Assembly: GCA_028285545.1 (NCBI GenBank)
Contig: JANQPA010000119.1
Coordinates: 1 to 21,140 of the forward strand
DNA from: Saprospiraceae bacterium
Lineage (GTDB): Bacteria > Bacteroidota > Bacteroidia > Chitinophagales > Saprospiraceae
Direction of reading: 5' to 3'
Length of the DNA: 21,140 nucleotides
Shown here: positions 1,253-15,695 of the stretch, in pieces
How positions within the stretch are numbered: the first letter of the stretch is position 1
Layout of the letters: each line of letters begins with the position of its first letter
Made by a program: the position numbers and the translations under genes
Notes under the pieces: model-generated
Database searches by the model: none
The model's input: the letters and a program-made list of their open reading frames with translations, nothing else
Told to the model about the DNA's origin: nothing

Positions 1253-2554
1253 TTAAAAAGGTACGAGTGAATTATCTTTGAAAGGGATGTTCTTACTTTT
1301 TAGTTCAAACTTTTGAATTTCGCCATAGTCGGTAAAAATGAACTTAACAACTTTGAGAGCTCCTATTTTTTCCCTGTGTTTATGTTTGAAAACTTGTTTT
1401 GTGCCCACTTGGATAGACAACTCACTTTTTTCATTTGAAATCTCTACAGGAAACGAATGGTCAAAATTATAGGAGAGATTTGAGAGGTCATTGGTTTTAC
1501 CAGAGATGACCTCGTTCCCACATTTTATTGCTGTGAGTCCATGGCAGCCCTCAAAGCTTATTGGTATTCGCATCGCACCCATTTGACCTTTTAGAAGAAT
1601 GTCTACTTGATGGCAGGTTTTTCGTAAAGGGTCGGCGTAAATTTTAAGTTGGGTACTTAATTTAAAATGATCTCCAGATACTTTTTCCAGGGATTTATTG
1701 GATAGGGTAAATACAGGAAATATTTCCCTTTCATCTTGTAATTGATATTTGCTTTCTAATTGTTTAGAAATAGAAAGGTAATTCGGTCCAACAAAATCAG
1801 ACCTGTTAACATAAATAGGATTAGAGTCAAAGGAAGACTTCATTATAAGACCATGCCATTCGGGAGTTGTTATGTGAACAAACTTTTTGCTTAGTATTTG
1901 ATTGTCTTTTGTTAAAATTTTGGCCTCATGAAAATCTGGATAAAAATAGGTGCCGGTGTAATAGCTTTTGGAAGGGTCAAGAATTGTTCGCTCATAGGGG
2001 TTCCAGGAAAGTTCTATAGACAGTTCCTGATTTATTTTTTTTATATCATAATTAAATCCTATGGTTGCGGGTATTCCCTCAGCTTCCTCTTTTTCCGGAT
2101 GAAATGATATCAACTGTGACAGCTCTTTTTCATTCGTTAATACCATCCAGGCAGCTGCCATACCGACCATTATTATTAAAAATAAAAAGATGAGTCCTTT
2201 TTTTAGAGGACTTGTGGAATTGCCCTTGGGCACTGAAGGTTGTGATCTTTTGAAGTCATGCCAACTTTCAAAATCGATGGCCTGTGCCAGGGCATCCAGT
2301 GTTTTAATCTGTGGGGTTCTTTGATTCTGATCTGACCAAATTCTTCGCAAGGTAGCTGTACTAAGTGCGATTCCTGATTTTTCGAATACTCTTTTTTTTA
2401 AGTATTCAAAATCCCGCTGGGTAAGGACTTCACCGTGTAGATTTAAACTTAGAGCAATATTCTTTTTGCAAATTTCCAGATACTGGGCATCGCTCCAACC
2501 CTGTCTTTGATCCACTTGCAAAGGTTTTGAAAAGGATTTGAAAACCATGATCAT
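1253..2554 (-). CDS. membrane-anchored XRE-family HTH transcriptional regulator with a ~300-aa extracytoplasmic domain (433 aa; true start may be Met3 at 2548)
   Basis: N-terminal Cro/C1-type HTH signature (SGIALSTATLRRIWSDQNQRTPQIKTLDALAQAI). One hydrophobic TM helix (GLIFLFLIIMVGMAAAWMVL), then a large C-terminal domain with no recognisable motif. Confidence 0.65.
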   Translation of the reverse strand: MIMVFKSFSKPLQVDQRQGWSDAQYLEICKKNIALSLNLHGEVLTQRDFEYLKKRVFEKSGIALSTATLRRIWSDQNQRTPQIKTLDALAQAIDFESWHDFKRSQPSVPKGNSTSPLKKGLIFLFLIIMVGMAAAWMVLTNEKELSQLISFHPEKEEAEGIPATIGFNYDIKKINQELSIELSWNPYERTILDPSKSYYTGTYFYPDFHEAKILTKDNQILSKKFVHITTPEWHGLIMKSSFDSNPIYVNRSDFVGPNYLSISKQLESKYQLQDEREIFPVFTLSNKSLEKVSGDHFKLSTQLKIYADPLRKTCHQVDILLKGQMGAMRIPISFEGCHGLTAIKCGNEVISGKTNDLSNLSYNFDHSFPVEISNEKSELSIQVGTKQVFKHKHREKIGALKVVKFIFTDYGEIQKFELKSKNIPFKDNSLVPF

Positions 2555-3901: not shown

Positions 3902-5599
3902 TTACATTTTTTTATACACCGCATGAGGATCGCTATTCACCAAAAAACCATCCTGCTTGAACTGAAGGAATGCAGTAGTCTCATATTTTATATTCCAGGT
4001 CATAAACTCATTTTCTCCTATGGGAATGAGAAAGGCTTCAAACCTTTCGGGAATATAATAGGGGTGGAGAGCTATTCGCCCATTGGGTATGCGGGTAGCT
4101 CTAAGGAGGAAGGGGCCATTCTCAAATTTTAATTCCATGAAAATTTGTATTTCCAATTCGCCTTGATAAAAATAGGGGCGTTTGTGTAAGATTTTCATGC
4201 TCTTATATTTTCCATATCCCGCTTTTAATTGATTCCAAACGCTGCTATACTGAACTTTGAATCGATCGAATAAACCTTCAAAAAATACATCCTTTAGAGG
4301 TTCAAAATCATTCCTGTTGATATGATCTATAGTAAATTCAAGTTGATCATCCTTTTCTGAAGCCCATTTTTCTTCATCAGGGAATAAAAGATTTCTGATT
4401 AGCTTGGTATCGGTTGTTCTTAGTTTAATTTGGTTAGAAATTTTGCCTGCTGAAATGTTAGCACTTGAATTACCAATTTGATATTTTCCGAAGTGTTTTT
4501 CTAAATTCACTGCACTAGCCTTATATGGAGAACTAGGAGGAAACTTGGTATAACCACCAAAAACAATAGACTCAACTTCTTGCATAATGTTCTCATGCCG
4601 AAGAGTCTCATTCATATTGGTATTGCCAAGGAAAATAACTACTAAATCTTCTTCTACAAAATGATAGAAACCAGTGACCATACCCAACCAACTATCATAA
4701 CCACCGTGATAAATCAATTGAGTACCACGAATGGTTTTTCGGACATTCCAACCGTAGGCATAATTATCCTTCTCAACTTTTAATAATTTTTGCTTTGATT
4801 TTTCAGTCAATAATTTATTAGAATGAAAAATTAGCTGATACCATTTATACATATCTTCGACGGTGGACAGGGTTACTGTAAATGGCCAGCTGAGTGGATT
4901 AGAAGACAATTTTAAGTCTGTATTAGAAACAGGCCAGTCCATGTATTGAGCTACCTGACCTTTTTTCCATTTTATGGATTTATTACCGGTATACCTCATC
5001 CCATTGGGTTTGAAGATATCTTCCACCAAAAACTGGATTCTAGGCTTTCCGGTTTTCAACTCAATAATTTTTGCTAAAATATCATAGCCAAAATTGGAAT
5101 AGCTAAAGGTCGTTCCAGGCTTATATTCCAGATCCTTTTCCAGCACTTTTGCAATAAATTGAGAGAAACTCAAATCTCTGTATTCTTTGTTATCCCAGTA
5201 AGCATTTCTCAATCCAGAAGTATGAGTTAATAATTGATGAATAGTAATTTCGGATTTATCTGTTGGGACATTAGACAAATGATCATCAATTTTATCATTA
5301 GTATTTAGAAGTCCCCTTTGTTCTAAAGTTAATATAGCCACAGCTGTGAACTGCTTCATAATGGATGCAATAGAATAGGCAGGCATTGAATTTAGAGTAG
5401 CTTCTTCGTTTCCGTAATTATTTTTAAAAATAATACCCTCCTTATTCCCAATGAGTAAACTTCCTGATAGGCCAAAAGCTTCCAGCTTTTTGAAATAGGT
5501 ATCAATAGCTTTGGCTGAAGAGGGAAGCGCATCTTGAGCAAAGGTATTTGTATGTACCAGGCATAGGGTGACCACTAAAGTAGTGACAAACTGCTTCAT
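3902..5599 (-). CDS. beta-lactamase-family serine hydrolase (PBP4/AmpC-like fold) with a ~200-aa C-terminal extension (565 aa)
   Basis: Signal peptide. S-x-x-K motif (ASIMKQF), Y-x-N motif (YSNFGY) and HGG (KTG-equivalent, HGGYDSW), correctly ordered. An extra C-terminal domain of unknown function follows. Confidence 0.85.
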   Translation of the reverse strand: MKQFVTTLVVTLCLVHTNTFAQDALPSSAKAIDTYFKKLEAFGLSGSLLIGNKEGIIFKNNYGNEEATLNSMPAYSIASIMKQFTAVAILTLEQRGLLNTNDKIDDHLSNVPTDKSEITIHQLLTHTSGLRNAYWDNKEYRDLSFSQFIAKVLEKDLEYKPGTTFSYSNFGYDILAKIIELKTGKPRIQFLVEDIFKPNGMRYTGNKSIKWKKGQVAQYMDWPVSNTDLKLSSNPLSWPFTVTLSTVEDMYKWYQLIFHSNKLLTEKSKQKLLKVEKDNYAYGWNVRKTIRGTQLIYHGGYDSWLGMVTGFYHFVEEDLVVIFLGNTNMNETLRHENIMQEVESIVFGGYTKFPPSSPYKASAVNLEKHFGKYQIGNSSANISAGKISNQIKLRTTDTKLIRNLLFPDEEKWASEKDDQLEFTIDHINRNDFEPLKDVFFEGLFDRFKVQYSSVWNQLKAGYGKYKSMKILHKRPYFYQGELEIQIFMELKFENGPFLLRATRIPNGRIALHPYYIPERFEAFLIPIGENEFMTWNIKYETTAFLQFKQDGFLVNSDPHAVYKKM

Positions 5600-5694: not shown

Positions 5695-6645
5695 TCATTT
5701 CGATTCATCAATCAATATACTTTCACTTAAGTCAATTGCTTGTCCATTATAATCAGTAGTCCAACCAAACTTGACCTTAAAAGAACCTTCTCTGGCAACG
5801 TTGACAATAATATTACTGGCGATATCAGTTCCTGGAATGCTCATCGTAATTTTAAAATCCCGGACCAGGAACAATTCTTTTGTTTTTCTTTTCTTTTGAT
5901 GGTGGACCCTGTACCAATAATCGATCCCAGCTTTTTTGGCTAATTCATAGACTCTTCTGAAATCCGATTCCGTAGAATATTCATTCAGGGTGAACACTTT
6001 TTCTGTGCTGTCAACTTTTGATTGATCTGAATCAGAATTTAATATTAAATCCCTCTCTTCAGGATTAGACTTTTGAGTTGCAGAGATTTTCTCCTCTACT
6101 TTTTGGCTGTTTTCTATTTCGAAAAGATCTGCAGTTTCGGTAAAAAAAGACTGTGGAAGGTCCCTAAAAGTAATTTTTGTTCCCGAGTTCATATTGTTAG
6201 TTAGGGTATCGGTATCAAGAGAGATAAGGAAGGTATCAATTTGCTTTCTTTTGTCATCATTAGTATTTCTAGGCTTTTCTTTAGGTCCATCTTTTACTTG
6301 ATCAGCTACTTTTCTGTCTTCTAATTCTATTTTTGGCTCATTTCCCTGAGCAAGGATTATTTTGGTATTATCGGAGTATACGTCGGTTATGGTTTCTTTA
6401 TTGAGGTTCTGATTATTTGTATTATAGCTCAGAAATACGGTGGTACCAATTAAAACTGCGGTGCTTGTAATAAAAAGGCTGGTTTTATTAATTATATTTT
6501 TAAAAATTCCGTTGCTCCATTTAGTTATTCCTCCTCCGGATATGCTTGTAGAAAATCTTTTGCTTACCTCATCGAAAGAAAGCTTGGGCTCCTGCGATTT
6601 AGCAGACTGAAATAATTCATCTAGTGGGCGCTCTCTTTTATTCAT
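5695..6645 (-). CDS. putative anti-sigma factor (single-pass membrane protein, 316 aa)
   Basis: The ATGA start/stop overlap with the upstream ECF sigma gene indicates translational coupling. A short cytoplasmic N-terminus is followed by one TM helix (SLFITSTAVLIGTTVFLSY) and an extracytoplasmic domain. Confidence 0.7.
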   Translation of the reverse strand: MNKRERPLDELFQSAKSQEPKLSFDEVSKRFSTSISGGGITKWSNGIFKNIINKTSLFITSTAVLIGTTVFLSYNTNNQNLNKETITDVYSDNTKIILAQGNEPKIELEDRKVADQVKDGPKEKPRNTNDDKRKQIDTFLISLDTDTLTNNMNSGTKITFRDLPQSFFTETADLFEIENSQKVEEKISATQKSNPEERDLILNSDSDQSKVDSTEKVFTLNEYSTESDFRRVYELAKKAGIDYWYRVHHQKKRKTKELFLVRDFKITMSIPGTDIASNIIVNVAREGSFKVKFGWTTDYNGQAIDLSESILIDESK

Positions 6646-7166
6646 GACGGATTATTTTTATTTAATTGGGAAAGAGGAGCAGGGTTCAGTAGCTGAGTCA
6701 GTTTTTTTCGGCCCCGCACAAGCCTTTGTTTTACCACAGAAATAGAAACATCATGTAATTCAGCAATTTCTTTAATAGAAAAACCTGTAATTTCAAATAA
6801 AATGAGGCTCTCTTTTTGAGTTTCAGGAAGCTTAGCAAGAGCTTGATAGAGCAGGTGAACATCAGCATCCCTATCCGTACGAATATCACTTGATACATTC
6901 AAAATCTGTTCACTATCGTGATAGCTAAGCTCTTTTTTTTTCTTATTATAATTTGATAGTACCCTGAGGCAAATGCTAAATAAATAGGAAAGAAATGCTT
7001 TTTCTGATTTTAACTCGTGAAACTTTTGGAAGGCAATAACCAGGGTGTCATTCATCAAATCACCGTACTCCATTTGTCCAAACACCCTTGCCCTGCAAAA
7101 ACGTTCAAATCGGTCATGAACCGGTTTGTAGAGTGATAAAAATTTCTTTTGCCTTTTAGTGTTCAT
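6642..7166 (-). CDS. RNA polymerase ECF-type sigma-70 family sigma factor (174 aa)
   Basis: Region 2 (DLMNDTLVIAFQKF) and region 4.2 HTH (FSIKEIAELHDVSISVVKQRLVRGRKKL). The size is typical of ECF sigma factors. Confidence 0.85.
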   Translation of the reverse strand: MNTKRQKKFLSLYKPVHDRFERFCRARVFGQMEYGDLMNDTLVIAFQKFHELKSEKAFLSYLFSICLRVLSNYNKKKKELSYHDSEQILNVSSDIRTDRDADVHLLYQALAKLPETQKESLILFEITGFSIKEIAELHDVSISVVKQRLVRGRKKLTQLLNPAPLSQLNKNNPS

Positions 7167-7238: not shown

Positions 7239-9464
7239 TTAACCATGATCCTTTTCTATAAGACAGGTGTGGCAGCCATCATAACCTCGCTTAATAGCTC
7301 TATCTAATTGACTAAAGGCTATTTTATTTTTGGAAGACATTTTAGACACCCAGGGGCAATTCTTTCGATGCACCTCCTTGGTTCTTCTATTGGCTACAAA
7401 AGGAAAACGCCCTACATTCAGGCGTCTGGTGATTCTTCCCATTTCAAAACCACCTATTTTTTGAATAACTGCTAAATCAAAAGCTCCATCTGGAGTATCT
7501 TCCGGTAAAATGATTTTCAAGGAGGCCTGGATAATATCGCTACTTTTGAGTTCCATATTTTTTATTCTGGAAATACGGGAAGGTTTAACAGCCAAAAAAT
7601 GATATTTAGTAGAAGTTCTTTTCACTTGGATGTGTTCAAAAGTAGCTTGCTTGGTTAATCGATTTAATATTTTTAATTCTACCTCCGTACCTTCAGGAAG
7701 ATCTGTTAGATCTAAGCTTAGATCGCTCTTCAGACTTGTTCTTCGCCATCCTTGGATTAGGAAAGAGAAGTTTATGAGAGAGCCTGCAAAAATATCTTCC
7801 ACATCAAAATTTTTCCAGGTAACATTATTGCTTTCGCGGATGAGGTTTCGAAAATCATCAAGGCTTCGAATCCTGGAAAGATCAGGCTTGTCTTCTGTGG
7901 TCGTTCCAATTACTCCTACAAAACAATAGTGCCCAATAGCAGGGGCATTATTCCATCTCAAAGGGCCTACCACCCTAAATTCACCAGGTAATATATCATT
8001 GGCGGAAAGGGTACCTATTAAATTCCAGGAGTTAGGAGTGGGTAGTGTAGAGGGCATGGTCCAGTAGATGTCAATTTCTGCATCATCCTTTTGATAGCCT
8101 CGGTTTTGAAGCCGAGTGTAGATAAAATTACCTTGGCCTTCTTCCAGGGATTCAAAATGATGATCCTCAAATCGAGTAATCATATTGCCTAAAGCCTCTT
8201 GTGGGTTTACCAATTCTTGTCGAAAATGATTAATGTCCGGGCTCCTGGATAGACCACCATCTGCTAAAGGTTCCTCCCCTGTATCCTTTAAATTATCTCG
8301 AATGAATATATCGGAGGGGAGTTGTACGATCTCTATACAAAATTGGATTAAAGCAGCTGAGATCTCATCAATTACTGCTTCCCTTTCAGGCGAGGCGGGA
8401 GCAAACCCATCTCCAGTCTCAAGGGTGAATCCATGAACTTTTCTTAAAAATGGATTGACATAGCATCGGCTGTTGACATAATCCTGAGAGGTGCCTGTAG
8501 TAGGGGCAAGATCTACCGCCCTTTGAACAATATAACTTTTTCCTCTTACTTTGAGAATAGCCATTCGCATACTAATGCCCAGATTGACTCTCAGGAGGGT
8601 ATCTGCAGGATTAACATACTCTTTGTAACTGTCTCCTTCAGCCCCCATCTGTCCATGAAATTCAGTATTGCGAAAGTTCATATCTGGATTGGTGGTTTGA
8701 ACCTCATCAATTCCCCAATCATATAGAATTAATTGGCCGGAGCTATGAATATCAATAAAGAAGCTGATATTGGGATTGTCATCAAGAATCTGAACTACAT
8801 TTTTCGTTTCAGGTTCCGATGCGGCGCTGGGACCTATGTATCTACTGTTATCTGTTTGTTCACTACTATTTCTTCGAGCTGTTGGAGATAAATAATTATT
8901 AAAATCCCATAAAAAATCAAAATTTCTATTGATGTCGACTCCAAAGGTTCCATCACCATTATTCCGTCTATTTTTTCTCCATTTTGGACGCTCCTCTTCC
9001 GTTGCGGAAAAATGCCTGCCGTCAGGATTGGCCAGTGGGAATACAAAAATGTCCAATTGAGATACGATGGTTTGGATTTGTTCTGCTGTAAATTCATTTT
9101 CGTTAATGGTGATGCCTTCATTATTTTGATATGCATTGACCAAAATATTCATAAAATGAATGAGCGCATCAGGAGGCATCATTTCATTGCCGTGTATACC
9201 GCCTACAAAATAAACACCGACTCTTCCAGGGCCTGATCCATCTGCAATTTTTACGGCCTGGCAACGTCGTCCTTCATGGGTTCGGTGTGGTAAAAAGATG
9301 GGACTAGCCAGATGTGAAAACCTTTGGGTAACACGATCCATTTCTCTTTTAAAGTCGCTGACGCTTAAGTACATAGGTTTGGGATTTTTAACTTGTTTTA
9401 ACCGACTGAAGTCGGTTTTCCAGACATCCTGAAGGATATAGTACAGTATTAAGGGATTTCTCAA
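7239..9464 (-). CDS. M14-family zinc carboxypeptidase with a large C-terminal region ending in an Ada-like Zn-ribbon tail (741 aa). No signal peptide is evident.
   Basis: Zn-binding HxxE (GGIHGNEMM), second His ligand (FIDIHSSGQ) and catalytic Glu (HGFTLETG), in M14 order. The last ~50 aa (VHRKNCPW...NKIAFSQLDRAIKRGYDGCHTC) match the spacing of the Ada N-terminal zinc-binding motif. Confidence 0.8.
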   Translation of the reverse strand: MRNPLILYYILQDVWKTDFSRLKQVKNPKPMYLSVSDFKREMDRVTQRFSHLASPIFLPHRTHEGRRCQAVKIADGSGPGRVGVYFVGGIHGNEMMPPDALIHFMNILVNAYQNNEGITINENEFTAEQIQTIVSQLDIFVFPLANPDGRHFSATEEERPKWRKNRRNNGDGTFGVDINRNFDFLWDFNNYLSPTARRNSSEQTDNSRYIGPSAASEPETKNVVQILDDNPNISFFIDIHSSGQLILYDWGIDEVQTTNPDMNFRNTEFHGQMGAEGDSYKEYVNPADTLLRVNLGISMRMAILKVRGKSYIVQRAVDLAPTTGTSQDYVNSRCYVNPFLRKVHGFTLETGDGFAPASPEREAVIDEISAALIQFCIEIVQLPSDIFIRDNLKDTGEEPLADGGLSRSPDINHFRQELVNPQEALGNMITRFEDHHFESLEEGQGNFIYTRLQNRGYQKDDAEIDIYWTMPSTLPTPNSWNLIGTLSANDILPGEFRVVGPLRWNNAPAIGHYCFVGVIGTTTEDKPDLSRIRSLDDFRNLIRESNNVTWKNFDVEDIFAGSLINFSFLIQGWRRTSLKSDLSLDLTDLPEGTEVELKILNRLTKQATFEHIQVKRTSTKYHFLAVKPSRISRIKNMELKSSDIIQASLKIILPEDTPDGAFDLAVIQKIGGFEMGRITRRLNVGRFPFVANRRTKEVHRKNCPWVSKMSSKNKIAFSQLDRAIKRGYDGCHTCLIEKDHG

Positions 9465-10799: not shown

Positions 10800-13700
10800 C
10801 TACTTCTTTTGATTTTTCTCAATCGCCTCCTTAATTCCTTCTACACCATCCGTAAAGGCAGACAACTGAGCAATCACCTGCCCCATCGGATTATTGGCAT
10901 CTACTCCCTTAAAGAGTTTGTTTTTATTGAAGGTCTTTTTAATTTCTTCCCATCTGGATTTTTCTTCCTCAGAGATCCAACCTAACATTTCCTTCAATTT
11001 TAACAAGTTGGCTTCTGCATCTGCCGTCAGCGTTTGTGCTTCGCCTTCATAGTGATCCAGGATAAGGGTTTGCAATTCCTGATCATTGAGGATAGGGACT
11101 ATTTTTTCTGCCAATTTATTCATGTCTCGATAAGAGCCTTGTAATTTAAAAGCGGGTTCTGTTCTATATTCATCAGACATGGCAGCTGAGCGGATGTATT
11201 CTTGGTTGACGGTAAGGATAGTATCCCTTACCAGTAATAGTTTACTTAAAACAGCCAGATATTCATTTGTATCTTCGGCACCATATTGTCCTTCAAACTC
11301 GGCACCATCCCTTGAGCCTGTTTCTGCAATTTTGATGAAGGTATACACATCCTTCATGTTTTTCCCTGCCAGGCGATTCAAGCTCGGATTAGAAGTCAAT
11401 GAGTTTTCAATATAACTCATCTTGAAGGCATCAGCAGTTTCTCCTATGATATCACCGAGGTTGTAAATATCTGCTCTGTTGGCAAGCATATCAGGAATTT
11501 GGAATTTAGCACCACTTTCGGTGTAGGGATTACCTGCCATAACTACGCAAAATCTTTTGCCACGCAAGTCATAGGTTTTACCTATTCCATTATAAACACC
11601 CTCAATTTTTCGCTGGGCATCACATAATGAGATGAATTTCTGTAAAAATTCAGGGTTGCAATGTTGGATATCGTCCAGGTATAACATAATATTATCGCCC
11701 ATCTCCAGGGAAAGATTGAGTTTGTTCAATTCTTTACGTGCGGCCATGCTTGGAGCATCCTCTGGAGCCAGAGAAGTGACTTCATGTCCAATAGCTGGGC
11801 CGTTTATTTTTACAAAGATCAAACCCAAGCGATTGGCAATATATTCCATCAATGTGGTCTTACCATAGCCAGGAGGTGATATTAGTAGTAACAAGCCCAT
11901 TCGATCGGTCCGTGTATCTTCTCCAACTGTTCCCAATTGTTTAGCAAAATTATTACCAAAAATAGGTAGGTATACCTTGTCAATTAGTTGATTGCGAACA
12001 AATGAACTTAGTACTCTAGGCTGAAATTCATTCAACTGTAACTTCTGACGATACTCTTCGTTCAGTTGTTTTTTTAGCGAGCTATAAGCTTCAAATTGTG
12101 GGCAAGCTTCTGTAGTGAAGTGCTCCAATTTATCCATAAACTGATGGAAGTCAAAAGCGTAAGTCCCATTTTCTAAAACGGCATGATCCCCATGAAAACC
12201 CATTAATTGAGCTTGGGTGGGAGTGTCAATTATTTTACTTTTTTCTAAATCCCCTGCCATAATCAACATACTGGCTTCATCAAGATAGGCCCATAGGTTG
12301 GCCTCTTCTATTTGTTCAATATAAGCTTGAAGCCATCTGCGAATAAGATTGAATTGTGGTCTGGACTGGCCATCCAATTCTTTAACAGAATTATTGAAAA
12401 TGGTGACGGCTTTTTTCTTTTTGATAAAGGCCTTAAAGTCCTTGCTTAGATCTACGGCCTCTTTACTGGCTACAAAATGCTCGGACCGGGCTAATTCCTT
12501 GAACAAATAATTGGCAACCCTAGAAGCTAATGCTTCAGGAAAAAGTCTAGATTCTCCTAAAAACAGGCCGATTTCCTGACTTAACTCTTCAATTAGATAA
12601 TCAAACTCATGAGTGTCTGGAAAAACTTGTAAAATTACTCCGGCACTTTTAAGTTGATTGTTTAGTAAGATCTTTCGTTCTTTTTTAGCAAAAAATAGCC
12701 AAAACAGCTTTCCACAAGCTCTTACCCTGGGCGTGAAATATAACAGATCCAGTCGATCCGAAAGATCCACTAATTGAGCTAAGATTTTAGCTGCATCCTC
12801 ATCATGGATACCTTTGGTATACCCTTCCTCATATCGGTTGGCAGCAAATTCCTGAACCAAGGGCAGAAGATCTTTTTTATTTTTCTTTAATACCTTTTGA
12901 GATGCTGTTTGATATATCTGAAAGGCCAGGTATTCTGATCGGTATACTTGATTATTTTCAGAAACCAGACTTTGATTCCAAACTTCTTTAGTGTCTAAAA
13001 ATCGAGGATCCTGGATGGGCTCATAAAATTCGGTGCCTGTTAAATGGAAACTCATTCCTCCATTATCTCTTACAATGGTCAATTCCAGCGGCTGGGTATT
13101 AACAGAAAACTGGTGTTTTCCCAATTTCATTACATTAGCGCCTCCAACATACAAATCCTGACGATCTCTCAATTGCCTTAAAGCCTCTTCCCTGAGGGAT
13201 TTGAGTCTTGTTTGAATGCCACCTGCTTTGTTGCTATCATCTTGTTCATTCAGATCGCGAATGATATCCCGAACTTTATCAACCATAAGGTCGGATGCAA
13301 AGAAGCTGTTTATTTCATTAATTTCTTTGAAAGCAGCGGTTCTTTTTTGTATCCCTTCCAGGATTCTATTTGCGGCATTTTGGAGAGCTGCTGTCCTGTT
13401 GTTTCGGGCTTCTACCAATGCATTTCTTCTGGTTTCAAAAGCACTGTAAACCTCTTCTCTTTTTTCTGCCAATGAGGTAGTGAATTCAGGGATTTCCACA
13501 AAGCGACTTTCCAGCTCCTCTAGTTGAACCATTAATTTGGAGAGGTACTCATCACATTTTTGTGGATTATCAGATACTTCCAAAAAGTTGATAATGCTTT
13601 GATCCAGTAGGCGCATCTGGGCATTAAATTCTGCTCCGGCCTCTGTTTTTGCCAGATGATCTTTTTTGCGCTTAATAGCTGCTTTGACCTGATTAAGGCG

Positions 13701-15695
13701 AGTAAATAGTACAGAGATATTATCAATGATGCGGGTACTTTGGGTGGCATCTTCGATTTTTAGATTACTGACAATCTCAATTAATAATTCCAGTTCAGTA
13801 CCAATTTGATTGGCACACTCTTCTAATTCGTTGGCTTTTTTGGCCGTATTTAGATCTTTGATTTCAGCCTCTCGGGCCTCAATTTTTTTATCATAGGGTA
13901 ATAATGCTTCATCTTGTAATAAAAATGAAATACATCCCTCGGATAATTGCTGACTATTGGTATCAATCTCCTCCTCCAGATGAGTGATGGTTTCGGTATT
14001 GGCATAGGGAAGATCCTTCAGACTAATTACCTCTCCACGTAATTGCCGCAGCTCAGCCAGAATTGTAACAAATTGGTCGACAGAGTCAAAAGATTGTCTG
14101 CGTATTTGATCAAATAAGTTTTGGGCATGGATTTGAACCTGGTTAATTTCCTCCTGGGTTTGTTTCTGACTTCTGACTTTCTTTTCATAAGCATCAATAG
14201 CGGCATTAGCTGTTTCTCGGATATCCGCCAGCGGCTCATTTAGCTGAAAAGTAGAAGCATCATTTAACCAATAGTAGGAATCGATGACATCGGTACATTT
14301 TTTTACCAGGTCATCATATAAATCAGCATAATTATCTTCTTTGCTGCTTAGTACCAGAATTTCCGTACATTCTGCCATGGCCCGAACAATGTCCTTATTG
14401 CCAATTTTGTACAGGTAAGAGTTGGTATGCTCGGACGGAACTTCTTCGCCGGCTACAAAAGGAGTTTGCCAGATTTGAATGACATGATGCTTGATGGGAT
14501 CTTCCTCAGATCGAAAATAACACAATTCTCCACCGGGAAATAGGGTGAAACCATTGCAAAGGATAGGGGTTTCGACCTTTTGTTCAATTACATTATAGTG
14601 CAATAAAACATAAATACCCTTCTTTTTATCGTAAAAAACATAGAGATAATCTTCACCATTGGGCGACACGATGCGCTTTTTAAAAAGCTTATTGCGCATA
14701 TCAGGATCGAAGATCTTGTACTCCCCGGTTTTTAGATAATAGCCATTGGCAAAAATTAAACCATGCTCATCCGGGAGCAGAACACCCGAATCTTCCAGGG
14801 AGTCAATGCGCTGCACTTCCTGCATTTTTTCATTAAAAACAAAATATCGATATTCCTCCTGGTAGGGACGAATTTTTAGGGCAATCAAATTACCCAGGTT
14901 CGCATATAAATACTCTGCATCATCAAGGGTCTGGTCCTTATATTCCACATCCTCACTATAAATACCTCGGCCATCCTCTGTATTATCTTCTACCTTAATG
15001 GTTAAATCGCCACCTACTGTTTCTACAAAAACACGATCAAGAACAGACACATGAGGATGATCTCCTTTTTTGTGATCATCACGTCCTAGTCTTTTCCATT
15101 TGAATTCATGTTGCTGAGGAAAACGAACCTCATGATCGGATCGATTATCAATATATTGAATGCCTTCATCGGTGATCAACCATTTGAAGGTTTTAAAATC
15201 ATCTCCTTTTTCCGTTAAATGGAATACCATATATAGGTAAGAACCTCTTTGAGAAAAACGAGCGAAGTAGGCATCCTTATAGTACCGATAAAGATTGGTG
15301 AAGTCCAGTTGAAATTTTTCATCGTCAAGAATGGACAAATCTTTTTCTACAAAACGCTGCTCTTTAAACTCATAAATGCTGAATACATCCTTGAGTTGAA
15401 TTCCTGAGCGAAGTCCCACATGCACATTATAGCCAAAGACACAGTTATTGCCAATGGCTACAATATCCCTGGCAATACAATAATTGCTAGTGTTGACACG
15501 GTCAGTAGCAATCAATTGTGTTTCTATGGCACCAAAAACTTCCTTTCTTGCACGATTCAATTCCTGCATCCGTTTCCTCAATTCAGTGGCTTGCGCATCG
15601 AGGCGGTTGCGAATTATTTCATAGGTGCCACTTTCTAGTTGTGGGTTGTGTTGTGTAGTATCTTGGATATTGCTTGACATTTGAAATGTATTCAA
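10800..15695 (-). CDS. giant multidomain protein (1631 aa): beta-rich N-terminal domain, then a long coiled coil, then an alpha-helical region, then a C-terminal MoxR/dynein-type (AAA_5-like) AAA+ ATPase
   Basis: The uninterrupted 4.9-kb ORF begins at a TTG at 15695; the first ATG is at 15680 (MSSNIQ...). Walker A LISPPGYGKTT is encoded at 11856-11870 and Walker B MLYLDDIQH follows. The VVMAGNPYTESGAKFQIPDMLANRADIY segment gives the sensor and arginine pattern of MoxR/McrB/dynein-like AAA+ domains. Heptad-rich E/K/L/Q segments are at about 13000-14100. Confidence 0.85.
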   Translation of the reverse strand: MNTFQMSSNIQDTTQHNPQLESGTYEIIRNRLDAQATELRKRMQELNRARKEVFGAIETQLIATDRVNTSNYCIARDIVAIGNNCVFGYNVHVGLRSGIQLKDVFSIYEFKEQRFVEKDLSILDDEKFQLDFTNLYRYYKDAYFARFSQRGSYLYMVFHLTEKGDDFKTFKWLITDEGIQYIDNRSDHEVRFPQQHEFKWKRLGRDDHKKGDHPHVSVLDRVFVETVGGDLTIKVEDNTEDGRGIYSEDVEYKDQTLDDAEYLYANLGNLIALKIRPYQEEYRYFVFNEKMQEVQRIDSLEDSGVLLPDEHGLIFANGYYLKTGEYKIFDPDMRNKLFKKRIVSPNGEDYLYVFYDKKKGIYVLLHYNVIEQKVETPILCNGFTLFPGGELCYFRSEEDPIKHHVIQIWQTPFVAGEEVPSEHTNSYLYKIGNKDIVRAMAECTEILVLSSKEDNYADLYDDLVKKCTDVIDSYYWLNDASTFQLNEPLADIRETANAAIDAYEKKVRSQKQTQEEINQVQIHAQNLFDQIRRQSFDSVDQFVTILAELRQLRGEVISLKDLPYANTETITHLEEEIDTNSQQLSEGCISFLLQDEALLPYDKKIEAREAEIKDLNTAKKANELEECANQIGTELELLIEIVSNLKIEDATQSTRIIDNISVLFTRLNQVKAAIKRKKDHLAKTEAGAEFNAQMRLLDQSIINFLEVSDNPQKCDEYLSKLMVQLEELESRFVEIPEFTTSLAEKREEVYSAFETRRNALVEARNNRTAALQNAANRILEGIQKRTAAFKEINEINSFFASDLMVDKVRDIIRDLNEQDDSNKAGGIQTRLKSLREEALRQLRDRQDLYVGGANVMKLGKHQFSVNTQPLELTIVRDNGGMSFHLTGTEFYEPIQDPRFLDTKEVWNQSLVSENNQVYRSEYLAFQIYQTASQKVLKKNKKDLLPLVQEFAANRYEEGYTKGIHDEDAAKILAQLVDLSDRLDLLYFTPRVRACGKLFWLFFAKKERKILLNNQLKSAGVILQVFPDTHEFDYLIEELSQEIGLFLGESRLFPEALASRVANYLFKELARSEHFVASKEAVDLSKDFKAFIKKKKAVTIFNNSVKELDGQSRPQFNLIRRWLQAYIEQIEEANLWAYLDEASMLIMAGDLEKSKIIDTPTQAQLMGFHGDHAVLENGTYAFDFHQFMDKLEHFTTEACPQFEAYSSLKKQLNEEYRQKLQLNEFQPRVLSSFVRNQLIDKVYLPIFGNNFAKQLGTVGEDTRTDRMGLLLLISPPGYGKTTLMEYIANRLGLIFVKINGPAIGHEVTSLAPEDAPSMAARKELNKLNLSLEMGDNIMLYLDDIQHCNPEFLQKFISLCDAQRKIEGVYNGIGKTYDLRGKRFCVVMAGNPYTESGAKFQIPDMLANRADIYNLGDIIGETADAFKMSYIENSLTSNPSLNRLAGKNMKDVYTFIKIAETGSRDGAEFEGQYGAEDTNEYLAVLSKLLLVRDTILTVNQEYIRSAAMSDEYRTEPAFKLQGSYRDMNKLAEKIVPILNDQELQTLILDHYEGEAQTLTADAEANLLKLKEMLGWISEEEKSRWEEIKKTFNKNKLFKGVDANNPMGQVIAQLSAFTDGVEGIKEAIEKNQKK

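Follow-up and report, generated by a model that had tools for sequence, protein, structure and literature searches.

An Ada-like His-Cys3 domain at the C-terminus of a leaderless M14 carboxypeptidase from a Saprospiraceae bacterium, and the portable module to which it belongs

The stretch of Saprospiraceae DNA analyzed here (21,140 nucleotides of contig JANQPA010000119.1, hereafter the window) harbors a gene coding for a 711-aa protein composed of an M14A carboxypeptidase head, two Ig/CARDB-like beta-sandwiches and a tail of 56 residues, in this order. The gene lies close to an ECF sigma gene and to a gene coding for a putative anti-sigma protein. The features are the following, in window coordinates:

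5695-6645: putative anti-sigma protein (from the ORF list), with no Cys/His motif of its own
6642-7166, same strand as the carboxypeptidase gene: ECF sigma gene (Pfam), beginning 72 bp downstream of the carboxypeptidase gene
7239-9374, minus strand: complete CDS of the carboxypeptidase, 711 aa plus stop (from the ORF list, the database copy P0001 and the N-termini of homologues); the stop codon is bases 7239-7241
8325-9344, minus strand: Peptidase M14 (A/B-type) catalytic domain (PF00246, E 1.1e-47)
7785-8324, minus strand: beta-sandwich 1 (aa 351-530), with an invariant R-D-N-L-x-D-x-G-x-E-P ... S-P-D-I motif
7410-7784, minus strand: beta-sandwich 2 (aa 531-655), ending in ...GRITRRLNVG
7242-7409, minus strand: ADA_N-like tail (aa 656-711), with a predicted Zn(His-Cys3) site and a net charge of +10
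7356-7370, minus strand: codons H669-R-K-N-C673, His669 and Cys673 aligning with Cys38 and Cys42 of Ada
7263-7274, minus strand: codons C701-H-T-C704, the two Cys aligning with Cys69 and Cys72 of Ada

The minus-strand ORF 7239-9464 has a translation that ends in ...FPFVANRRTKEVHRKNCPWVSKMSSKNKIAFSQLDRAIKRGYDGCHTCLIEKDHG*, identical to the peptide quoted in the original prediction. The start codon is the ATG at 9374, homologues beginning at the equivalent MPYLNV..., and the public copy of the protein (P0001) has 711 aa and is 100% identical to that of the window; the gene was therefore taken as 7239-9374 and not 7239-9464. No Pfam family corresponds to either of the two beta-sandwiches, as judged from a Pfam search of the protein and of its module relatives.

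An M14 carboxypeptidase without a signal peptide had been predicted at this locus, and both parts of this assignment hold. The head matches Peptidase_M14 (PF00246) with 163.5 bits against a cut-off of 21.6 (E 1.1e-47), and the zinc and catalytic residues of the family are all in place (H61-x-x-E64, N149-R150, H210 and E319). The nearest solved structures are carboxypeptidases A4, A, B and T (E 1e-22), A4 being the best match with an alignment that starts at mature residue 8, and the N-terminus of the protein lies about 8 residues ahead of the equivalent of the mature A4 N-terminus. Such a start of the alignment implies the presence of neither a pro-domain nor a leader; no pro-domain was found in the alignment to solved carboxypeptidases, and a hydrophobicity scan of the 711-aa protein detected no signal peptide and no hydrophobic leader. 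The protein is best explained as a leaderless, cytoplasmic zinc carboxypeptidase of the M14A type. It shares its catalytic domain, including every zinc and catalytic residue, with the M14A carboxypeptidases A4, A, B and T, but is devoid of the signal peptide and pro-domain typical of A/B-type enzymes and carries a C-terminal extension of 360 residues that is not found in the solved ones. Several homologues are named MpaA (murein tripeptide amidase) at JGI; equivalence to MpaA was rejected, the match to the NCBIfam equivalog NF007897 reaching 12.6 bits against a cut-off of 157. Searches of NCBIfam and PADLOC with the tail, with the C-terminal half and with the entire protein yielded nothing relevant, indicating that the gene is not a recognized component of a defense system and that no small domain named by NCBI covers the tail.

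The tail was originally proposed to resemble the N-terminal zinc domain of Ada, with a His in place of the first Cys. A direct hmmscan of the last 70 residues against PF02805 (Ada_Zn_binding) reaches 15.2 bits (E 0.022) and does not attain the gathering score, 23; at E<=1 this model matches only 11 of the 33 homologous tails, and a phmmer search of the PDB with the single tail sequence gave no match. Profile searches were based on an alignment of the 33 homologous tails (A1), in which His23, Cys27 and Cys58 are invariant and Cys55 nearly so. The tail is thus common to the orthologues, a point on which the original prediction had been made to depend, and its ligand pattern, H-x3-C-x27-C-x2-C, can be followed as far as Streptomyces, Methanothrix and one genome of Promethearchaeota. 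Against all PDB sequences, the A1 profile retrieves Ada chains only (E 0.14-0.33), and hhalign aligns A1 with residues 1-91 of E. coli Ada at a probability of 89.9% (E 1.7e-6, 49 columns). This alignment pairs the tail His with Cys38 of Ada and the three Cys with Cys42, Cys69 and Cys72, the four ligand positions of Ada being occupied here by His669, Cys673, Cys701 and Cys704. The topology of the tail, beta-beta-(short helix)-beta-helix-CxxC, is that of the ADA_N-like / Ada_Zn_binding superfamily (PF02805; ECOD X-group), and a Foldseek search against viral models retrieved phage proteins named 'Metal binding domain of Ada'. When 1.84 billion proteins were searched with the A1 profile, 4222 cluster representatives were matched at E<=1e-3 (best E 8e-58); the best matches outside the family, P0133, P0134 and P0141 among them, pass PF02805 with E values from 1e-33 to 1e-17, and 62 of the 122 best matches pass it at 1e-4. 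Conservation, profile searches, structure and transitivity together indicate that the tail, although divergent, very likely does belong to the superfamily of Ada N-terminal zinc domains. The proposed resemblance is borne out, whereas the PF02805 search that was meant to check it falls short for the tail itself and succeeds for its closest relatives (E 1e-33). The direct Pfam test alone would have wrongly dismissed the relationship, which needed structure and transitive profile searches to be recognized.

In Ada, Cys38 accepts the methyl group from a methylphosphotriester, and its methylation turns on DNA binding electrostatically (PMC5934668, PMC10957082); the ECOD paper gives the older acceptor assignment, Cys69 (PMC12353581). 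All 33 aligned tails have a His at the position equivalent to Cys38. Among 283 related domains from the top 150 A1-profile matches, the first ligand is His in 278 and Cys in five, a tally biased towards the query profile. The nucleophilic Cys38 that defines a functional Ada is therefore replaced, and the likeness to Ada lies in the fold and the metal site, not in the repair chemistry. From its sequence, the tail is very unlikely to carry out Ada methyl transfer, as a His at this position could not act as methylphosphotriester acceptor, and the repair chemistry appears lost. The tail also differs from the N-terminal domain of E. coli Ada (N-Ada10; PF02805; PDB 1u8b, 1eyf and 1adn) in being C-terminal and attached to a peptidase, whereas the Ada domain is N-terminal and followed by HTH and methyltransferase domains. 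Neither an AraC-type HTH nor an O6-alkylguanine methyltransferase domain is present in the window protein, where Pfam finds only Peptidase_M14 outside the tail, which forms the last 56 residues. The conserved ligands make a Zn(His)(Cys)3 site with bound zinc plausible, and a neutral His would give the metal center the same net charge as in methylated Ada, so that the tail may resemble the DNA-binding 'on' state.

The closest sequence relatives outside the family (E down to 8e-58) are tandem His-type repeats (for example P0133, P0134, P0215 and P0274, from secreted and SNase proteins), with which the tail shares the motif [FY]-[IV]-G-N-x-x-[ST]-x-x-x-H-x3-C ... G-[FY]-x-x-C-x-x-C. In these proteins, which have a signal peptide or a membrane anchor, 2-7 copies of the His-type Ada_Zn_binding domain follow one another with Pro/Ala-rich linkers in between, and their ending is 'PC..C.P' as in Ada, whereas the window protein has one copy only, which packs behind a beta-sandwich and ends in 'GC..CL.E.D.G'. 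A duplicated tail domain is present at the end of some family members (P0138 and P0143). The tandem His-type repeats are already captured by the Pfam model, and the tail is a further, more divergent branch of the known Ada fold. Fusions of the domain to SNase account for 8 of the 122 top matches, and it is also found with Endonuclease_NS_2 and with an MBL nuclease-type (metallo-beta-lactamase-fold) domain. Many of the relatives sit in secreted or cell-wall proteins (PMC12353581). Pei et al. (2025) place ECOD ADA_N-like domains at the C-terminus of Cwp27, ComEC, ArfC, LGFP-repeat proteins and ribosomal protein L4 in Gram-positive bacteria; no peptidase figures among these examples, most of which are secreted or membrane proteins from Firmicutes and Actinobacteria (PMC12353581). 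The window tail, in contrast, sits on a leaderless peptidase module distributed from Bacteroidota to archaea, and its His-Cys3 set is intact and not 'deteriorated'. A literature search on the domain names turned up only this ECOD reclassification paper. To judge from the literature searched, no description seems to exist of an intact His-Cys3 set on a peptidase lacking a leader, of the constant double-sandwich module that follows heads from many peptidase clans, or of the wide, patchy spread of this module.

The sandwich-sandwich-tail module is also present, at 42-56% identity, behind Gln_deamidase_2 (PF18626), C13 and astacin heads besides M14. A scan of one genome per species added M4 (with FTP/PepSY propeptides), S8, M28, C1 and M36 heads as well as heads of unknown family. 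With at least nine peptidase or protein-modifying heads other than M14, it is a portable C-terminal module of many unrelated peptidases. The 103 genome loci belong to Bacteroidota, Chloroflexota, Myxococcota, Desulfobacterota, Acidobacteriota, Actinomycetota, Planctomycetota, Nitrospirota and candidate phyla, and also include Methanothrix and a Promethearchaeota genome. Paralogues that differ in their heads are often arranged in tandem (L005, L006, L035, L069 and the contig of P0027), and a stand-alone propeptide-like ORF comes after the S8 versions. Beyond these tandem paralogues and propeptide-like ORFs, an all-against-all ORF comparison of 83 loci revealed no neighbor conserved across taxa. 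In the predicted structure, pLDDT values of the tail are high next to sandwich 2, a sign that the two may form a fixed unit, and the extreme C-terminus, C-L-P-E-x-D-T-G, is strongly conserved. We rejected a reading of this terminus as a T9SS C-terminal domain or a sortase-like LPxTG signal, since there is neither a Sec leader nor a trailing membrane segment; the occurrence of the family in archaea and Gram-positive bacteria also contradicts it. By hydrophobicity scan of the N-termini, no signal peptide was found in any module-bearing protein examined. The fusion of a zinc-type tail to a leaderless M14 peptidase had been called odd from the outset, and it is indeed unusual.

The vicinity of an ECF sigma/anti-sigma pair had also been pointed out; the ECF sigma gene is real (6642-7166), but the neighborhood is not conserved in homologues. 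It is lacking around the Flavivirga orthologue, around P0009 and in most of 80 genome loci; in L003, an ECF sigma/RskA pair lies two genes away from the astacin version. A promoter and terminator scan of the intergenic region gave a background level. A functional link with the ECF sigma factor was rejected because the contexts of the orthologues (Flavivirga, P0009, the astacin version and the contig of P0027) and the 83-locus comparison show no conserved neighbor, and the adjacency is probably incidental. Identity of the tail with a zinc-binding anti-sigma (ZAS) domain was likewise rejected from its H-x3-C-x27-C-x2-C spacing, C-terminal position and Ada-like fold, ZAS domains being N-terminal and helical with an H-x3-C-x2-C motif.

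We propose that the tail could be a non-catalytic, structural Zn(His)(Cys)3 binding module that would hold the enzyme to a polyanion. A cytoplasmic location would make the phosphate backbone of DNA or RNA the most probable ligand. The tail might represent a permanently switched-on version of the Ada electrostatic switch, its His mimicking the methylated state of high DNA affinity, and the module would bring unrelated peptidases to a common location or substrate. Several features point to the binding of an anionic polymer: the tandem arrays, the nuclease fusions, the basic tails (net charge +10 here and +3 on average in the family, with acidic bodies of mean charge -32) and the polybasic C-terminal stretches (+5 to +12) that stand instead of the tail in 13 of 21 tail-less relatives. 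The tail charge is near zero or negative in some members (-1 in L004 and in the Streptomyces loci L065 and L081, -2 in L017). Two residues of Ada, Arg45 and Arg71, reportedly contact DNA according to the paper describing 1u8b; their positions are occupied by Ser and Thr in the tail in the hhalign alignment, which counts against the DNA-binding reading. No nucleic-acid-related gene was found among conserved neighbors in the ORF comparison of the 83 loci, and we know of no reason for tethering a carboxypeptidase to nucleic acid. In the secreted and cell-wall relatives, a polymer of the cell envelope might be bound instead of DNA, which also speaks against the proposal. On balance, we give roughly even chances to a non-catalytic tail tethering the enzyme to a polyanion, most likely nucleic acid, a far less secure conclusion than the fold of the tail and its lost repair chemistry.

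Other explanations differ widely in probability. A fortuitous similarity between a small zinc-finger motif and a short C-terminus rich in Cys and His would fit the weak, sub-threshold Pfam E value of 0.022 and the empty single-sequence PDB search, but it is effectively refuted by the Ada-like fold, the A1-profile matches, the hhalign result and the relatives that pass PF02805, and is extremely improbable. Nearly as improbable is the idea that the tail still works like Ada in sensing or repairing alkylated DNA, with one of the remaining Cys accepting the methyl group and alkylation damage being coupled to proteolysis. A role of ADA_N-like domains in sensing alkylated DNA is put forward as a speculation by the ECOD authors, who cite as acceptor Cys69, conserved here (PMC12353581), but later structural work puts the acceptor at Cys38 (PMC5934668, PMC10957082). 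At this position stands the His of all 33 tails and 278 of the 283 related domains; moreover, the AraC-type HTH and the O6-methylguanine methyltransferase domain are missing, and many relatives of the tail domain are secreted.

Less remote, though unlikely, is a redox- or zinc-sensitive switch, in which oxidation or metal loss at the Zn(His-Cys3) site would unfold the tail and regulate the peptidase, possibly in connection with the ECF pair. Cys-rich zinc sites can sense redox, H-x3-C is superficially like the H-x3-C-x2-C of zinc-binding anti-sigma factors, and ECF sigma genes lie 72 bp downstream on the same strand here and near the astacin version of L003. The spacing and the Ada-like fold, however, are not those of the helical anti-sigma domain; a Cys/His motif is lacking in the putative anti-sigma protein (5695-6645), ECF genes are absent next to the Flavivirga orthologue, P0009 and most of the 80 loci, and the domain is abundant in extracellular, oxidizing contexts. 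A more serious competitor, which we regard as possible but less probable than the polyanion tether, is that the tail and the two sandwiches form a dockerin-like module for protein docking or oligomerization, bringing different leaderless peptidases together on one protein scaffold or in one compartment, nucleic acid playing no part. In its favor are the single constant C-terminal module behind at least ten enzyme heads, the paralogues with different heads that share a locus (L005, L006, L035, L069 and the contig of P0027), the conserved terminal C-L-P-E-x-D-T-G and the high pLDDT of the tail beside sandwich 2, suggestive of a fixed unit. Against docking, no candidate scaffold gene is kept next to the family across taxa, the association of the His-type domain with secreted nucleases and linker-separated arrays is more typical of polymer binding, and the polybasic tails of the tail-less relatives indicate an anionic ligand.

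A broader version of the tethering proposal, which is speculative and which we consider rather doubtful as a whole, would regard the module as an undescribed, horizontally mobile targeting tag carried by leaderless M14, C13, astacin, M4, S8, M28, M36, C1 and protein-glutaminase enzymes, an intracellular counterpart of dockerins or of secretion C-terminal domains. Often encoded in clusters and sometimes with stand-alone propeptide-like inhibitors, these enzymes might be concentrated on nucleic acid or another polyanion by a His mimicking methylated Ada, for example in a programmed-cell-death or anti-invader system of bacteria and archaea with complex lifestyles.

To our knowledge, Ada itself is the only functionally studied member of the Ada N-terminal zinc domain family. 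The tail belongs to a very large His-Cys3 branch of it (4222 cluster representatives at E<=1e-3), devoid of the repair cysteine and apparently serving as a repeatable binding module on nucleases and proteases. Identifying its ligand would annotate thousands of proteins. The branch could also show whether the methylation switch of Ada is reproduced when the ligand at position Cys38 is neutral. An unannotated module on normally secreted protease families, all leaderless here, also poses a puzzle as to where such enzymes are active and what keeps them from doing harm. The missing signal peptides are an oddity in themselves, the head families being typically secreted enzymes.

Family members can stand side by side in the same genome. 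Two to three paralogues sharing one C-terminal module (the double beta-sandwich followed by the His-type Ada-fold tail), with differing enzyme heads, lie in tandem at the genome loci L005, L006, L035 and L069 and on the JGI contig encoding the database protein P0027, and L006 carries three of them consecutively. The head pairs found among these tandem paralogues are PF18626 with C13, S8 with M4, and M36 with M28.

Some neighbouring genes recur with particular heads. An NHL/beta-propeller-like protein of about 230 aa is encoded next to PF18626- or C13-headed members at five loci from different phyla, and on the contig of P0027 a 228-aa gene likewise lies between the two paralogues:

L005 1672-2523, NHL/beta-propeller-like gene
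L007 7093-7785, NHL/beta-propeller-like gene
L019 4438-5196, NHL/beta-propeller-like gene
L023 4485-5204, NHL/beta-propeller-like gene
L024 4510-5196, NHL/beta-propeller-like gene

Long C13-headed members are preceded by an ORF of about 120 aa at the five loci below and at others. These ORFs carry the motif VFVDL-P-x-NW-H-C and share homology with roughly the first 130 residues of the protease; the only one checked against Pfam (L012) matched no family.

L011 4084-4467, ORF ahead of the C13-headed member
L012 4188-4550, ORF ahead of the C13-headed member
L014 1483-1986, ORF ahead of the C13-headed member
L015 4341-4751, ORF ahead of the C13-headed member
L021 4277-4666, ORF ahead of the C13-headed member

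Each S8-headed member is directly followed by an ORF of 115-157 aa that shares homology with the propeptide-like N-terminus of that protease; the one example checked has no Pfam family. The products of these ORFs may act as stand-alone inhibitors or chaperones.

L032 7108-7461, propeptide-like ORF after the S8-headed member
L034 4944-5417, propeptide-like ORF after the S8-headed member
L037 4797-5162, propeptide-like ORF after the S8-headed member
L039 7081-7497, propeptide-like ORF after the S8-headed member
L040 7109-7522, propeptide-like ORF after the S8-headed member
L041 7094-7441, propeptide-like ORF after the S8-headed member

The tail itself varies. H-x3-C is replaced by H-x4-C at L019 and L024, and the second ligand Cys by Tyr in the database protein P0012. 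A divergent M14 subgroup (P0021, P0023 and P0024) is missing the standard C-x2-C pair: P0021 ends with C-x3-C, and in the other two just the last Cys of that pair remains. At L066 and L070, from candidate-phyla genomes, M4-headed relatives have a C-terminal DUF3892 domain (Pfam match obtained for L066 only) instead of the Ada-fold tail. Outside the family, P0133, P0134, P0135, P0136 and P0141 are short secreted proteins consisting almost entirely of three to six His-type Ada-fold domains in tandem, with Pro/Ala-rich linkers between them. In P0215, P0274, P0180 and P0209, two to four such domains accompany a staphylococcal-nuclease domain.

ORF and Pfam analysis identified the following genes around the peptidase gene in the window:

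1253-2554 (-), 433-aa ORF, no Pfam match at E<=0.001
3902-5599 (-), secreted beta-lactamase-family protein, 565 aa, after the putative anti-sigma gene
5695-7166 (-), ECF sigma factor (174 aa) and putative anti-sigma factor (316 aa)
10800-15695 (-), DUF3686, DUF7902 and AAA domain protein, 1631 aa
15863-17953 (-), SPFH/Band-7 protein, 696 aa

The 316-aa protein, encoded downstream of the ECF sigma gene with a 4-bp overlap, is a single-pass membrane protein and likely the anti-sigma factor; it matches no Pfam family, and a Cys/His zinc motif is absent from its sequence. Immediately upstream of the peptidase region, the gene of the 1631-aa protein, whose DUF3686 match (“ATPase involved in DNA repair”) has an E-value of 5e-183, adjoins the SPFH/Band-7 gene, and the two may form a conserved gene pair.
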